Positions 16,090 to 55,980 of a stretch of DNA of 64,000 nucleotides are shown piece by piece. The translations under genes were made by a program, and so were the position numbers. Each line of letters begins with the position of its first letter. Within the stretch, counting starts at the first letter, position 1. This stretch comes from an uncultured Rickettsiales bacterium (GTDB lineage Bacteria; Pseudomonadota; Alphaproteobacteria; Rickettsiales; UBA1997): contig CAJQHK010000002.1 of assembly GCA_905478165.1 (NCBI GenBank), positions 3,840 through 67,839 of the forward strand, read 5' to 3'. The notes under the pieces were generated by a model that saw only the letters and a list, made by a program, of their open reading frames with translations, made no database searches and was not told where the DNA came from.

Positions 16090-16197
16090 AAATTAATTAT
16101 AGATCTTCCTTTTTATTTTTTTACCTAAGAATCTTAAAAAACCATTTCTCATTATTTTAAATTGAAAATAATAATTACTATTGTTATATTGATGTTT

Positions 16198-16566
16198 GAA
16201 GGGTGGGTAGTCGCTTATTTTTTAATAAGAGGAAAGTCCGGACTCCTAAAGGGAAAATGCCAGCTAACAGCTGGGCATTAAAAATAGTTTATTCTATCGA
16301 TAATGACGGAAAGTGCCACAGAAAATATACCGCCATCTTAATGGTAAGGGTGAAAATGTGAGGTAAGAGCTCACATATATTATTGGTAACAGTAATGTAG
16401 GTAAACCCCATTTGGAGCAAAACCAAATAGAGACATGCGTATACCCTTTTGCATATCATGTCTGGGTAGGTTGCTTGAGGTTGTTGGTGACAGCAATCCT
16501 AGATGAATGGCTATCACTGATTATTTTTTATTTTCAGTACAGAATCCGGCTTATAGCCCTTCTTTA
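16198..16566 (+). ncRNA. rnpB: RNase P RNA, bacterial type A
   Basis: Universally conserved blocks are present: GAGGAAAGTCCGGACTCC, GGTAAGGGTGAAA, AGATGAATGGCTATCAC, ACAGAATCCGGCTTATAG. P1 pairs GAAGGG.. with ..CCCTTC. Ends are approximate (+/-5 nt). Confidence 0.92.
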
Positions 16567-16664
16567 TCTCGTCAAAACTTATTCCTTATAAGAAGGTTTT
16601 TGACTCACTTTTAATAAGAAATTTTTTGTTAAAAGTGTAGTTGAGTTTTAACAACCAGCGCTTC

Positions 16665-18513: not shown

Positions 18514-18650
18514 TGTTATTTTGTCGTTATATTATAACCCTAAAAACGGCAAAAATTAATTTTAACTGCTGTTTTTTTGGGTGGTGCTAAGTTGTATTTT
18601 ATGTTTAATAAAATTAATTATCAATTATTGATCTTACAACGCTTTGCGCT

Positions 18651-18699
18651 TGTAACGCATTATATAGTAAAGTACTTTAAGGTTAAAATTGTCAAAAAA
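18651..18699 (-). repeat. Intergenic repeat family 1, copy A (promoter-like, oriented toward purM)
   Basis: Minus-strand reading is TTTTTTGACAATTTTAACCTTAAAGTACTTTACTATATAATGCGTTACA. Confidence 0.6.
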
Positions 18700-18932
18700 C
18701 TTCACCCCCACTAGCGCAGGCAGGAATTTTTTAATAATTTATGAATAAAATATTTTGAAAAAAACTGCCTTAAAGCCAGAAAAAGGCGTTAATTTAATAA
18801 TTGCCTATTAAAAAACCGTTATTAGAATGGTTTTCGTTATATTTAGAGTTAAGTAAGTTTAATACATTGTTTTATATTGACGGTATTTTATATTTCCCTC
18901 CAAATTTCTTATTAATTTAAATTTTTAAAAGC

Positions 18933-20677: not shown

Positions 20678-20753
20678 TGGTGGAGATAAGGAGATTCGAA
20701 CTCCTGACCTCCTGCGTGCAAAGCAGGCGCTCTACCAACTGAGCTATATCCCC
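20678..20753 (-). tRNA. tRNA-Ala (anticodon UGC), CCA encoded
   Basis: Minus strand reads GGGGATATAGCTCAGTTGGTAGAGCGCCTGCTTTGCACGCAGGAGGTCAGGAGTTCGAATCTCCTTATCTCCACCA. It folds as a full cloverleaf and has the G3:U70 identity pair. Confidence 0.95.
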
Positions 20754-20756
20754 ATT

Positions 20757-20812
20757 AATCGTTAAGAATAAAAATTCTTACTAATAAGGCTCAAGGTTAA
20801 TAATTGACAACA
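20757..20812 (-). repeat. Intergenic repeat family 1, copy E (oriented toward tRNA-Ala)
   Basis: Minus-strand reading is TTGTCAATTATTAACCTTGAGCCTTATTAGTAAGAATTTTTATTC.., directly upstream of the tRNA 5' end. Confidence 0.5.
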
Positions 20813-21595: not shown

Positions 21596-21814
21596 ATCAT
21601 GAAAATAACTGAATTTGTTTTACAAAATATTAATAGCATTACTTTGATTATTGCTATATTTGCTGGTTTTTTGCCTTTGTAAAATGGGTTGATTCAAGAA
21701 ATAGAGAGATAAGAAGGGAGGAGCGTAAAGAATTAATAATAGGCACGAGTATATAGGGCTAGAAAATTAGTTGCAAGCTTTTATTTACTTAGATTAAAGT
21801 TTTTTTAGTAATTA

Positions 21815-21844
21815 TCGTGGGTAAAGATATGGGAATTTAAGATA
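21815..21844 (+). repeat. 30-bp copy of the IS right end (TCGTGGGTAAAGATATGGGAATTTAAGATA)
   Basis: Identical 30-mer at 22707-22736, where it covers the last codons and stop of the transposase ORF. Confidence 0.8.
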
Positions 21845-21876
21845 ACAGCGGCTCTATTGACAAGCAGATAAAGTTT

Positions 21877-22716
21877 ATGTCAGTTGTATCTGCCGATAAT
21901 AATCTGCCTCTATATTTTCGCTATAATGCAGGCAGTATTGTAGACATCTCAACCCTTACAAATACCATTAAAGAGCTTAAGGCTCATAACACTACAGCTA
22001 AAGCTGTATTATTAGATGCAGGATTTTATTCTAATGATAATATTGAATTATTACAAAAAAATAAAATCAATTTTATTATCAGACTTCCATCTGGCAGAAA
22101 ACTATTTAAAGAAGTAATTGATAATGAAAAAATAGATCTGGCCTCCAATGCAGTAAAAGTATCCAAAAAGAGAGTGGTATTTATCAAAGAAAAAGAGATT
22201 AAGCTAAACAATAAAAAGGTCTATGCCTATATTATACTTGATCCAAAGAAAAAGGCCGATCTAGTAAATAGCTATTTATCTGAAAAAATAGATGATAAGC
22301 AAAAAATAAATGACGCTGAAATGTCTAAGATTATAAGCCAAAAGGGTTTGTTTGTAATAATATCTTCAAAAAAACAGAAAACAGACAATATCCTAAATTT
22401 GTACTATACCAGACAAAAGGTTGAAAGAATGTTTGCTTTCTCAAAGTCAGACCTCAATCTTCTAGCACTAAGAGTACATAGTGAAGAAGCTCTAAGGGGA
22501 CATTTATTCTTACTGTTCTTGTTATCTTACTTTTTTATGAAGATCCATCAGAAGCTAAATAAAGAATTTACCGTAGAGCAGGCATTTATTATACTCTCGG
22601 CGCAGAAGGCAAAGATATATGAAAAGCAGATATTTGTACAAGAGGCTACAAAAAAACAGAAACAGATTTTTGAGCTTCTTGGCTATGATATGCCAGAGGA
22701 GATTGCTCGTGGGTAA
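21877..22716 (+). mobile_element. IS4/IS1634-family DDE transposase, 5'-truncated copy (C-terminal ~280 aa)
   Basis: Blocks LLDAGFYSNDNIELL and YYTRQKVERMFAFSKSDLNL..RVHSEEALRGHLFL are the D and Y-R-E regions of IS4-like DDE transposases. The N-terminal half is absent. The frame is closed by TAA at 21838-21840, inside the duplicated IS-end repeat. Confidence 0.65.
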
Positions 22717-22736
22717 AGATATGGGAATTTAAGATA
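22707..22736 (+). repeat. 30-bp IS right end (second copy)
   Basis: Identical to 21815-21844. Confidence 0.8.
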
Positions 22737-22810
22737 TAGCATAAATCGCAAAAAATCCTAAAACTTATCAGGTTAATTGGTGTTAAAGACATTTACCTGA
22801 AAAAGAAAAA

Positions 22811-23030
22811 ATGAAGCATGTTATCCCGCAATCAGGATCAGTTTATGCTGATAAGGGCTATTATGATAAAAGCGCCAAAGCCGCAACAGCTAAAAAAATC
22901 TTCACCTGTCTGCAATGAAAAAAACAACATGAAAGACAAGGGTCTTGATAAATGGTACTGAAAACTAAGATCACCTTATAAAAGAGCATTCTCCAAAACA
23001 AACCACGGAGTCATACCAATTTCCACCTTT
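22811..23030 (+). pseudogene. IS5-family transposase fragment (frameshifted)
   Basis: Translation is ..SGSVYADKGYYDKSAKAA.. and, in another frame, ..DKWY*KLRSPYKRAFSKTNHG... These match the ADKGY and R..vE..F..K blocks of IS5-like transposases. Confidence 0.45.
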
Positions 23031-23336
23031 AAAGCAGTTTTTTTCGAAATATTTTTATGCATAAATTATTAAATTATGCAATTCCCTTGGTAGGGTAACA
23101 CCTTTCGGTGTAGCTCAGTTAGTGTAGAGTGTGGAGATAGCAGCAAAAGAGGTGCAAGGTAGAACATAAGACGTTAAAAATTGAAGTAGATAATTAGTTG
23201 TGTTTTAAGGATATCTTTGTATATTTAATTCTTTACTATCGAAGTATTATTTAAAAATCTAGCTTCGTCTAATTTTGACGAAATTATTTATTTTTCAACT
23301 GATTTTGGTAGACAACTTAATTAAATTACTAAAACA

Positions 23337-35410: not shown

Positions 35411-35449
35411 AAAATTTCCCATCTATAATACTGGATAGATAATAGACAT
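35411..35449 (+). repeat. 38-bp repeat AAAATTTCCCATCTATAATACTGGATAGATAATAGACAT (family-1 Box2/TATAAT module)
   Basis: About 30/38 identical to 36530-36567 in the same orientation. It contains TATAAT at 35424-35429. Confidence 0.6.
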
Positions 35450-36529: not shown

Positions 36530-36567
36530 ACCAATTCCCACCTATAATACTGGGTAAGTAATGGCAT
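36530..36567 (+). repeat. 38-bp repeat ACCAATTCCCACCTATAATACTGGGTAAGTAATGGCAT
   Basis: This is the partner of 35411-35449. Together with 36578-36603 it forms an inverted pair. Confidence 0.6.
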
Positions 36568-36577
36568 GATCTAGAAT

Positions 36578-36603
36578 ACGTTATAAAGGGGAGTTGGTAT
36601 AAT
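36578..36603 (+). repeat. Family-1 Box2 module ACGTTATAAAGGGGAGTTGGTATAAT, 26 nt upstream of the HAD gene
   Basis: Matches ..ATTATAAGTGGGAATTGGTAT (copy B) and the reverse complement of 63905-63925. Confidence 0.5.
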
Positions 36604-38800: not shown

Positions 38801-38876
38801 GCCCAGATAGCTCAGTTGGTAGAGCAAAGGACTGAAAATCCTTGTGTCGGCGGTTCGAATCCGTCTCTGGGCACCA
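38801..38876 (+). tRNA. tRNA-Phe (anticodon GAA), CCA encoded
   Basis: GCCCAGATAGCTCAGTTGGTAGAGCAAAGGACTGAAAATCCTTGTGTCGGCGGTTCGAATCCGTCTCTGGGCACCA folds as a full cloverleaf. Confidence 0.95.
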
Positions 38877-41556: not shown

Positions 41557-41577
41557 TTATAATCGGGAAATTAGGTA
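41557..41577 (+). repeat. Family-1 Box2-like module TTATAATCGGGAAATTAGGTA in a non-coding spacer
   Basis: Similar to TATAAGTGGGAATTGGTA. No ORF lies downstream on the plus strand. Confidence 0.35.
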
Positions 41578-42624: not shown

Positions 42625-43521
42625 TTAAACTGAGTATAATAATTTAGTTTTTTTAATGTAGAATTCTGGAAAAATAGACTTTAGATTGTCAAAAGCCAAA
42701 TCTAAATCAGATTTTTTTACAAAAACACCAAAGCAAGTTGCTCCGCTACCGGATAATTTTGCACTAATAATATTTCTTTGCAATCTTAGATTTTCTAAAA
42801 TATCGACAATTTTAGGGCAAAATTTTATAGCAACCTGCTCAAGATGATTTTTCCGACATTTTATCATCGAGATCAGATCTAATTTTTGCTCTTTCTGAGT
42901 ATCTTCTTCTAAAAGTTGATAATTTTGAAAAATCTTACCAGTATCAATTGAAATTTTTGGATTGATAATTAATAAATAAAGATTTTTTTTATCAATGTTT
43001 ACGCTCCTAATTACTTCTCCGACTCCAGAAACTAAAGCTATCTTCTTGTGTAAGCAAAATGGCACATCAGACCCAATTTCAAGGGCAATTACCCTCAATT
43101 CTTCTCTGGAAATTTTTAAATCATACAATTTTATTAAAATTTCAATCAAAGTTGCGGCATTTGCTGATCCTCCACCCAAGCCAGCTGCTATTGGAATGTT
43201 TTTTTCTAATTTAATATTAATATTTGGAATAAAATTATATTTTTTGGCGAATAGATTTACTGTCTTAATTAGAATATTATCCTCCTTTTTACCTAAAAAT
43301 TTTAAATTTTGCTCTCCAATAATTTCTAATTCTAATTTATTAGATTTTTCTACTGAGATTATGTCAAAAATATCAACAAATGCCATCAAACTATCAATTA
43401 AATGATAATTTTTAGAATTTTTACCGGTAATTTCTAAAAAAAGATTTATTTTTGCAAATGACCTGGCAATGATAGCGCTCCGCCTTTTTAAGGAAGTTTT
43501 TTTCAAAATACTTTTATTCAT
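42625..43521 (-). CDS. ispE: 4-diphosphocytidyl-2-C-methyl-D-erythritol kinase
   Basis: 298 aa. GHMP kinase motif PIAAGLGGGSANAA. Confidence 0.9.
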   Translation of the reverse strand: MNKSILKKTSLKRRSAIIARSFAKINLFLEITGKNSKNYHLIDSLMAFVDIFDIISVEKSNKLELEIIGEQNLKFLGKKEDNILIKTVNLFAKKYNFIPNINIKLEKNIPIAAGLGGGSANAATLIEILIKLYDLKISREELRVIALEIGSDVPFCLHKKIALVSGVGEVIRSVNIDKKNLYLLIINPKISIDTGKIFQNYQLLEEDTQKEQKLDLISMIKCRKNHLEQVAIKFCPKIVDILENLRLQRNIISAKLSGSGATCFGVFVKKSDLDLAFDNLKSIFPEFYIKKTKLLYSV

Positions 43522-43563
43522 AAATTATTAAAAAATATCCGTCCTGTGTTAATGGGGTGTAGC

Positions 43564-43616
43564 AACAATTCCCAAACCTTAGCGACATCTTTGGTTTAAG
43601 GTGGACCTTGGTATTA
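43564..43616 (+). repeat. Intergenic repeat family 1, copy G (oriented toward typA; internal deletion)
   Basis: AACAATTCCCAAACCTTAGCGACATCTTTGGTTTAAGGTGGACCTTGGTATTA aligns with copy B at both ends. Confidence 0.5.
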
Positions 43617-48181: not shown

Positions 48182-48252
48182 CAAAGCTTTTGTAATGCAA
48201 TGGCTATTCTAAGTTTTTTAGAAAAAATAAAAGGTCAATGTTGCAGTTAAAT

Positions 48253-48312
48253 TTAACAATTTTAACCTTAAAGTATTTTGATATATAATGCATTATAAGT
48301 GGGAATTGGTAT
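48253..48312 (+). repeat. Intergenic repeat family 1, copy B (most complete; oriented toward the 48334 gene)
   Basis: TTAACAATTTTAACCTTAAAGTATTTTGATATATAATGCATTATAAGTGGGAATTGGTAT contains the perfect palindrome TATAATGCATTATA. Confidence 0.65.
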
Positions 48313-48333
48313 TAGACCAAAACTAACCCTAAT

Positions 48334-55073: not shown

Positions 55074-55172
55074 TAGTTTATAAAAAGGCAATCTTTGTAT
55101 GTATAAAAATCTTTTTTATAGATAAGTTGTTTACTTTTTTCTTCATTTTTTTAATATTGTACCATTTGCTAT

Positions 55173-55262
55173 TTATAATGCAGTATATATCAATATATTT
55201 TAAGGTTAAAATTGTTAAAAAACTACTGTCTTTTGTTAGTAGGGTATGAGGCTTTTTGGTAA
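55173..55262 (-). repeat. Intergenic repeat family 1, copy C (points away from hisG, toward the rsmD 3' end)
   Basis: Minus-strand reading is AAAAAGCCTCATACCCTACTAACAAAAGACAGTAGTTTTTTAACAATTTTAACCTTAAAATATATTGATATATACTGCATTATAA. It is homologous to copy D throughout. Confidence 0.6.
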
Positions 55263-55329
55263 TCAAAAACTTAAAAGATGAAGTTAGGTCATGCTATCAC
55301 TTAATGTCTAAATATAAAATAAAAATGTA

Positions 55330-55980
55330 ATGAGCAAAGAATTAATATTGGCAATTCCAAAGGGCCGAATATTGAAAGACTTATCTAAGATATTAGATCG
55401 CTCTGATATTAAAATTGAAGATGATTTTTTTGATGAAAATTCTCGTAAATTACTTTTCTCTTCTAACATAGGCAATCTTAAGGTTATTAAAATTAGAAGC
55501 TTTGATATCGCTAATTTTGTTAGACTAGGTGCTGCAGATATTGCAATCTGTGGTCACGATGTTTTAGAAGAGTTTTCGTCAGATCAAATTTACCCTTTAT
55601 TAGACTTAAACATTGGCAAATGTCGCTTGTCAATTGCGGCTAACAATTCTAGCAAGAAGGATTTTCGTAATGAAAGTCATGTTAGAATAGCGACTAAATA
55701 TGTTAACATATCAACCAAATATTTCTCTAATTTAGGAATTCAGGCCGAAGCAATTAAACTAAATGGTGCTATGGAACTGGCACCAAGATTAGACTTGTCT
55801 GACTATATCGTAGATTTAGTCGATAGTGGCAGAACATTAAAAGAAAATAATTTAGTCGAGATAGAAAAAATAATGGACGTCAGTTCTTATTTGATAGCTA
55901 ATGTAAACTCCTTTAAGACAAAAAAGAATGAAATCAGCAATATTATTGAAATATTAAAAAATATTAATGTCACTAATTAG
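55330..55980 (+). CDS. hisG: ATP phosphoribosyltransferase, short (HisZ-dependent) form
   Basis: 216 aa. N-terminal LAIPKGRILKD and the PRPP-binding block DLVDSGRTLKEN. Confidence 0.9.
   Translation: MSKELILAIPKGRILKDLSKILDRSDIKIEDDFFDENSRKLLFSSNIGNLKVIKIRSFDIANFVRLGAADIAICGHDVLEEFSSDQIYPLLDLNIGKCRLSIAANNSSKKDFRNESHVRIATKYVNISTKYFSNLGIQAEAIKLNGAMELAPRLDLSDYIVDLVDSGRTLKENNLVEIEKIMDVSSYLIANVNSFKTKKNEISNIIEILKNINVTN

Follow-up and report, generated by a model that had tools for sequence, protein, structure and literature searches.

The dispersed repeat described here is very probably a MITE, a non-coding element of about 170 bp which was mobilised by an IS630-family transposase, inserted mostly into intergenic DNA and is now decaying. 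It is carried by an uncultured Rickettsiales bacterium whose source assembly (G000) consists of 1,198,634 bp in 31 contigs with 31.2% G+C, and the window, the stretch of 64,000 nucleotides that was analysed, corresponds to C2:3840-67839 of this assembly. The structure of the element, its copy number, the duplication of its target, one clean empty site, a matching IS and the random orientation of the copies are all observed directly. A first-pass annotation of the window had suggested either a spreading promoter/terminator module or the regulon signature of one DNA-binding protein. The spreading itself is borne out by terminal inverted repeats, a 3-bp duplication, a site that is empty in a sister species and a cognate IS630 element. 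The arrangement of the copies is not that of a regulatory system, and nothing indicates that they act as a shared regulatory signal.

Structure of the element

Extension of the core matches into their flanks across the assembly reveals a non-coding unit with a consensus of 169-170 bp. The block TTGACAATTTTAACCTTAAA...TATAATGCATTATAAATGGGAATTGGTA, on which the first-pass annotation was built, does recur, but it makes up only the right third of this inverted-repeat element, namely its rightmost 60-70 nt. The element is bounded by terminal inverted repeats (TACCAATTCCC...GGGAATTGGTA) of approximately 20-25 bp, the left one reading TACCAATTCCCAYCT... and the right one ...GGGAATTGGTA, which are found in both of its subfamilies, SF1 and SF2. 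Since flank extension yields a unit of 169-170 bp, the "GTGGGAATTGGTAT box" that had been described as a separate motif is this terminal inverted repeat. Read from the left, the element begins with the terminal repeat TACCAWTTYCCAYCT..., which is followed by a left arm and a central hairpin of the form AAAAAG-CCTTRCACCCTATTAACATAGGGCRG-TTTTTT, in which a GC-rich stem lies between an A-run and a T-run. The hairpin and T-run that had been noticed ahead of the block in copies C and D are thus real and form the middle of the element. Between this hairpin and the right terminal repeat sits the right arm, the block of the first-pass annotation. Full copies measure 148-171 bp, well below about 300 bp and too small to hold a transposase. 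Inside the block lies a near-palindrome, TATAATGCATTATA, the outer half of which (ATTATAAATGGG...) forms part of the terminal end that the MITE has in common with the IS described below.

The left and right arms are complementary and pair with each other, and a whole copy therefore folds as one long hairpin, with a predicted energy of -58.3 kcal/mol for SF2 (z=-9.8) and -41 kcal/mol for SF1 (z=-4.8). Folds with z-scores of this strength could also belong to small RNA genes, or to hairpin RNAs processed by RNase III, that had multiplied through duplication, and some MITEs of other bacteria are known to yield sRNAs (PMC10969869). Such an origin is nevertheless very unlikely for the present family, as a search of Rfam with the element returned no family match (chance matches only, to plant miRNA precursor hairpins at E-values of 0.1-0.4), the orientation of the copies is random and many of them are truncated. 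Terminal repeats and a target duplication moreover account for the spread of the element without any RNA function.

Copy number and subfamilies

The exact core TTAACCTTAAA occurs 18 times in the assembly, 15 of these occurrences having about 110 nt of homology in common, and a profile made from them found dozens more. A census with two subfamily profiles at a cut-off of E<0.01 gives 103 non-overlapping loci in the genome, counting copies and fragments, of which 43 belong to SF1, the TTAACCTTAAA type that the first-pass annotation had seen, and 60 to SF2. The element is full length at 36 of the 103 loci and fragmentary at the other two thirds; chimeras and deletion derivatives occur as well, such as the SF2/SF1 chimera of copy A and a form at window positions 36530-36600 that retains only the ends. 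Pairwise identity averages 73% among 11 full copies of SF1 and 91% among 13 full copies of SF2, making SF1 the older wave and SF2 the younger. On a crude map of ORFs of at least 90 aa, 99 of the loci are intergenic and the midpoint of the remaining four lies inside an ORF. In total the family occupies 11.6 kb, which corresponds to about 1% of the whole genome and 7% of the intergenic DNA. Roughly 7% of the intergenic DNA of this reduced genome is thus transposon debris, which annotators of the lineage should mask.

Copies in the window

The core is present without mismatch at window positions 18676, 48262, 55199 and 63945, each time surrounded by tens of conserved bases. It is this long flanking homology, in copies A to D, which is significant (nhmmer E-values of 1e-13 to 1e-37); for the 11-mer core by itself, with up to one mismatch, the seven occurrences found compare with 8.6 expected from shuffles and amount to no enrichment. 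The list of copies labelled A to G in the first-pass annotation stands in part, as profile searches confirm A, B, C, D and G.

Copy B, listed on the plus strand at 48253-48312 as AATTTAACAATTTTAACCTTAAAGTATTTTGATATATAATGCATTATAAGTGGGAATTGGTAT, occupies 48252-48311, with a profile match over 48252-48310 (nhmmer E=1.9e-13), and consists of the right arm only, corresponding to positions 111-169 of the SF1 profile. Within it are TTAACC-N16-TATAAT and the terminal repeat ...GTGGGAATTGGTA, after which comes TTA. Directly upstream, the 70 nt from 48182 to 48251 resemble a decayed remainder of the element. Copy C (55161-55330, minus strand) is a near-full SF1 element with a profile match from 55161 to 55322 (nhmmer E=2.3e-37, profile positions 9-169); it is antisense, lies between two plus-strand genes and abuts the ATG of hisG (55330) with its decayed left end. 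The hisG leader consists wholly of MITE DNA (copy C, 55161-55330), an arrangement that is common to the sister species G003. Copy D, also on the minus strand, is a full SF1 element that is cut by the end of the window: the part at 63907-64000 matches with an nhmmer E-value of 1e-23, and on the contig the copy runs to about 64070-64074 in window numbering (G000:C2:67745-67913; nhmmer E=2.1e-38, profile positions 5-169).

Two further copies have a mixed composition. Copy A (18640-18782, minus strand) is a chimera in which an SF2-type arm and the central hairpin are joined to an SF1-type right arm between decayed terminal repeats, and one stretch is accordingly matched by the SF1 profile on the minus strand (E=2.4e-13, 18640-18719) and by the SF2 profile on the plus strand (E=4.3e-16). 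Copy G occupies about 43477-43614 on the plus strand, upstream of typA, with an SF2-like arm to the left of the hairpin and a diverged arm to its right. The SF2 profile matches it over 43481-43562 (E=2.6e-18), and the segment at 43564-43616 given in the first-pass annotation is the diverged right arm, which ends ...GGTGGACCTTGGTA and then TTA, with the right terminal repeat at 43600-43614. A copy that the annotation had not included lies on the minus strand at 23014-23109 and corresponds to the right-hand half of SF2 (profile positions 69-169; nhmmer E=9.6e-17).

The separate modules that had been reported as consisting of the box alone fare unevenly. The pair at 36530-36567 and 36578-36603 is accounted for by a single 71-bp mini-copy with a deleted interior (36530-36600, plus strand; SF1 profile positions 2-46, E=1.1e-6), in which the left end TACCAATTCCCACCTATAATACTGGGTAAGTAATGGCATGATCTAG is fused to the right end ...TTATAAAGGGGAGTTGGTA. 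The module at 35411-35449 (plus strand, AATTTCCCATCTATAATACTGGATAGATAATAGACAT) is a possible solo left-end fragment with a weak match to SF1 profile positions 5-39 (E=0.25), and those at 2980-2998 (E=6) and 41557-41577 (no match) are at best relics. Copies E (20757-20812, upstream of tRNA-Ala) and F (2805-2856, beside an ordinary hairpin and T-run) gave no match in the profile search even at E<50 and, judged by this search, are not members of the family.

Target duplication and distribution among relatives

Among 35 full copies, 13 are flanked by identical 3-mers immediately outside TACC...GGTA, compared with 6.5 expected (P=0.0015). TAA or TTA follows the right end of 28 of the 35, and in 14 copies the left flank also reads TAA or TTA, the middle base agreeing between the two sides in 12 of these. 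The duplicated target is therefore three bases, TAA or TTA, and not the TA dinucleotide. At base resolution this can be read from a single clean empty site in G003, a sister species of the same genus with approximately 90-93% nucleotide identity in shared regions and an assembly that is 66% complete. There contig C18 reads ...gagacataTAAtgttaaat... with a single TAA, where the filled counterpart on G000:C25 reads gagacataTAA[TACC-169 bp-GGTA]TAAtgttaaat. A second SF2 copy, C5:52392-52560, is likewise missing from G003, in a spacer too diverged for the duplication to be read, and the C19 and C1 regions fall outside the 66%-complete assembly and provide no empty-site comparison.

The SF1 copies A, C and D are found at the same sites in G003, the orthologue of D being on G003:C1, and copy C in G003 is 90% identical, a value equal to that of its flanks. 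Beside the orthologue of copy D there are about 181 extra bases (G003:C1:17201-17381, loci L223 and L226), which may be a nested insertion. At the site of copy B, the genes for a SPOR-domain protein and an APH-family kinase are 0-17 nt apart in the congeners G001, G002 and G004, compared with 152 nt here. The 152-nt spacer (48182-48333) is hence a lineage-specific insertion, and MITE B has split what was probably an operon junction. At the site of copy A, G002 and G004 have a spacer about 170-190 nt shorter than here. Related genomes thus differ in the copies they carry, B and A being absent from more distant congeners and the C25 and C5 copies from G003. In a comparison of 40 relatives, high abundance of the family is confined to G000 and G003; G001 and G002 retain relics, G004 has no copy, and another genus (G013) has a diverged relative of the family. 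An exact 23-mer of the block was found outside this genome only in a G003-like record among 185,579 species genomes.

This distribution also bears on the second suggestion of the first-pass annotation, that the block is the operator of one host protein which co-regulates purM, the kinase gene, NDUFA12, tRNA-Ala and typA. A conserved near-palindrome does lie inside the block, and several of the window copies are located upstream of genes. The homology, however, extends over 170 bp, far beyond the need of an operator, and includes terminal repeats and a target duplication; congeners are devoid of copies at the same sites; the adjoining genes are functionally unrelated and half of the copies face away from them; and the sequences before tRNA-Ala (E) and at 2805 (F) do not belong to the family. 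A regulon is for these reasons extremely unlikely. Since the outer half of the palindrome belongs to the terminal repeat common to the IS, the protein expected to bind it is the transposase. The false lead of a regulon with a shared operator is thereby removed.

The probable parent insertion sequence

A search for DDE_3 (PF13358) identified a truncated IS630-type gene in G009 with an end, TTA|TACTAAATCCCATCTATAATAG, that is close to the SF1 end. With the G009 protein as query, seven ISs were recovered from MAGs of related uncultured alphaproteobacteria, six of 1,090-1,107 bp and one (L125) of 887 bp. All seven (L116, L117, L118, L120, L121, L123 and L125) share 19-22 nt of their ends with the MITE, and such ends are also found in L135 and L178. 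The ends of L116, L117 and L120 (TACCAAATCCCATTTATAAT...) are SF1-like, and those in L135 and L178 (TACCAATTCCCATCTTTAA...) match the first 19 nt of SF2 exactly. Like the MITE, the ISs are flanked by TAA or TTA, with matching TWA triplets in three of the six full copies in which both flanks are visible. The sequence shared between MITE and IS is confined to the terminal 20-25 bp, the arms and the hairpin being unlike the interior of the IS.

Domain matches indicate that the parent is of IS630 type, with a predicted DDE_3 transposase and an N-terminal HTH. In L120, orfB matches DDE_3 (E=1e-23) and orfA matches HTH_33 (E=5e-12) and, more weakly and below Pfam's cut-off, HTH_Tnp_Tc3_2. The layout of the ORFs was read in two of the ISs: an ORF for the HTH part is followed by one for the DDE part, overlapping in L120 (1041-2034) and adjacent in L116 (469-1462). 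A transposase split into two ORFs in this manner suggests programmed frameshifting or decay. The 31-contig assembly of the host holds no intact cognate transposase. What it does hold is an intergenic relic of 141 bp (C12:37493-37633), which aligns to residues 39-85 of L120 orfB and has 81% amino-acid and 77% nucleotide identity to the IS.

Other candidate parents were considered and rejected. The host has an IS630 remnant of its own at C3:235-1160 (locus L108), the ends of which (TATAGCCAACTAAATTAAGC) are unrelated to those of the MITE. This remnant is degraded, with an HTH_Tnp_IS630 ORF and fragments of DDE_3, and a full SF2 copy is located 440 bp away. On G003:C62 a transposase of 285 aa with a DDE_3 domain was found, around which no matching ends were recognised. 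The TWA duplication had also suggested an IS5/Harbinger-type parent, an idea that was given up once the IS630-type elements with their matching ends had come to light; neither G000 nor G003 has a match to PF13586 (DDE_Tnp_1_2), and what this profile matches in G002 and G013 bears no relation to the repeat. The usual target duplication of the IS630 family is TA and not three bases, and a literature search for a three-base duplication in IS630 found nothing relevant. The three-base TAA/TTA duplication by an element of IS630 type is thus the one unusual trait, and of modest interest.

It is proposed that an IS630-family (DDE_3) transposase acted in trans, recognising the terminal repeats and inserting the element at TAA or TTA in AT-rich intergenic DNA with duplication of the three bases. 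An older SF1 wave would have preceded the split from the sister species, and a younger SF2 wave would account for the copies that differ between both species. That the copies were mobilised by this very transposase, and that they no longer move, we infer: given that this genome keeps only the 141-bp relic of the cognate IS, they are probably immobile and decaying.

Promoter-like and terminator-like signals

The TTAACC-N16-TATAAT that had been pointed out in copy B is indeed present and scores 10/12 as sigma-70-type hexamers. Such matches are common in the AT-rich DNA of this genome (118 found versus 92 expected in 20 kb), and the TTAACC...TATAAT motif is entirely missing from SF2. At many right junctions the sequence is TGGTATAAT, an extended -10 that is composed of the end of the element, TAA and T. 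The central hairpin of SF2 has a predicted folding energy of -11.9 kcal/mol on the forward strand (z=-3.1) and -20.5 kcal/mol on the reverse (z=-5.4) with T-runs on both sides, which makes for a MITE with a built-in bidirectional terminator-like hairpin, a trait of modest interest in its own right; the decayed copies of the window fail a simple terminator scan. Stem pairing reaches 84.4% compared with 80.8% in shuffles, and covariation 0.200 compared with 0.145, neither being attained in any of 500 shuffles, although related sequences can yield such values without structure. The excess of stem pairing hints at some constraint beyond pure decay.

From these signals one could propose that the host has domesticated the element and keeps its copies as cassettes, each a bidirectional intrinsic terminator with an outward sigma-70-type promoter that insulates or restarts transcription. 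The A-run/stem/T-run folds on both strands, the somewhat better kept stems, the hexamers of copy B and the extended -10 at many right ends all speak in its favour, as does the placement of copy B, which fills the whole spacer before the APH-kinase gene, and of copy C next to the hisG ATG; Correia and SPRITE elements furthermore provide precedents (PMC10969869). The genome-wide arrangement of the copies argues in the opposite direction. Relative to the downstream gene, 48 copies have the same orientation and 53 the opposite (p=0.69), which is random, the outcome that the first-pass annotation had named as counting against its proposal, and those that keep the promoter-like arm are divided into 30 and 29. 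The claim that the copies are aimed at genes is not sustained by these counts, and the statement that five of seven point at the next gene had leaned partly on the non-members E and F, with C in fact antisense between plus-strand genes. The quality of the hexamers is also independent of orientation, the best -35/-10 match in SF1 averaging 9.36/12 when facing the gene and 9.31/12 when facing away (mean 9.3/12), and there is no bias towards co-directional, convergent or divergent intergenic regions, the distribution fitting spacer length or number (p=0.23 and 0.12).

The pattern of conservation is equally hard to reconcile with a selected promoter. Conservation is about even along the 170 bp, with G and C positions decaying fastest, and in the orthologous pair of copy C the -10-like box is lost in G003 with the adjoining AT-rich block left intact. 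The spacer between the hexamers, which had appeared more conserved than a promoter needs, consequently reflects common descent, since the whole 170 bp is conserved to about the same degree. Taken together with the missing motif in SF2 and with fragments at two thirds of the loci, these results make domestication of the family unlikely. We consider it quite improbable, too, that the parent represents a new IS630 branch duplicating TWA whose hairpin has been selectively kept and co-opted as a gene-boundary insulator, with outward promoters at the TGGTATAAT junctions.

The reading as a decaying MITE leaves room for local effects, and the promoter-like hexamers and the terminator-like hairpin may affect single neighbouring genes. 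Any such effect on transcription we infer from sequence features, and copies B and C should influence their neighbours, because B with its decayed remainder makes up the whole leader of the kinase gene and C abuts the hisG ATG. With leaders that are all MITE DNA, hisG and the APH-family kinase gene offer test cases for the tolerance or use of insertions in streamlined genomes.

Comparison with known elements

The repeat is a classical bacterial MITE, in most respects unremarkable selfish DNA, and does not belong to the RUP, Correia, SPRITE or RPE families. Its closest parallels in terms of origin are RUP (repeat unit of pneumococcus) and other IS630-derived bacterial MITEs. RUP is a short non-coding element the ends of which match the IS630-family IS IS630-Spn1, with mobilisation presumed to occur in trans (PMC3049150, PMC2229807). 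Terminal repeats that match an IS630-family IS, many intergenic copies, several subfamilies and presumed mobilisation in trans are features of both. Unlike RUP, the present element duplicates three bases, TAA or TTA, resides in an uncultured alphaproteobacterial host with a small genome, has no sequence similarity to RUP and carries arms and a hairpin unrelated to the interior of the IS.

Correia elements of Neisseria are inverted repeats of about 100-150 bp or more, which lie mostly between genes, carry sigma-70-like promoters close to or at the termini and form long hairpins upon transcription (PMC10969869). They resemble the present element in size, intergenic location and long hairpin, and the junction -10 (TGGTATAAT), here predicted from sequence, is analogous. 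The effects of Correia elements through promoters, IHF sites and RNase III have been shown experimentally, whereas those of the present family are predicted from sequence. Sequence, host and target duplication differ as well and the copies here have no orientation bias, so that Correia elements are an analogue only. SPRITE is a small dispersed repeat with a core that resembles an intrinsic terminator (PMC10969869, PMC3049150). Whereas SPRITE is little more than a terminator-like hairpin, the hairpin of the present family is the centre of a MITE with terminal repeats and an IS-type parent. Rickettsia palindromic elements are palindromic repeats of about 150 bp in the small, AT-rich genomes of alphaproteobacteria (PMC10969869). 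RPEs frequently reside within genes, in frame, and code for a peptide, in contrast to the 99 of 103 intergenic loci seen here, and no transposase is known for RPEs, whereas a cognate IS was found for the MITE.

Other features of the window and related records

The window also contains an IS at 21725-22750 with a DDE_Tnp_1 (IS4/IS5-type) transposase ORF (21877-22716). About 0.9 kb of it is present in more than 40 copies with approximately 88% identity in the congener G002, and the 120 nt that precede it have at least 25 further copies there. RNase P RNA of class A is encoded at 16195-16569 (273 bits), tRNA-Ala at 20678-20753 and tRNA-Phe at 38801-38876.

Contigs of these aquatic alphaproteobacteria with small genomes are present in several public records named 'Ulvibacter sp.' or 'Rickettsia typhi', including L001 and L227-L233 (JBLHPX01) as well as L117, L118 and L171 (CAMDRL, CAMCSJ and CAMASZ). 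They have MITE and IS copies in common, and TypA is 98% identical in one of them. These labels look wrong or the bins contaminated.
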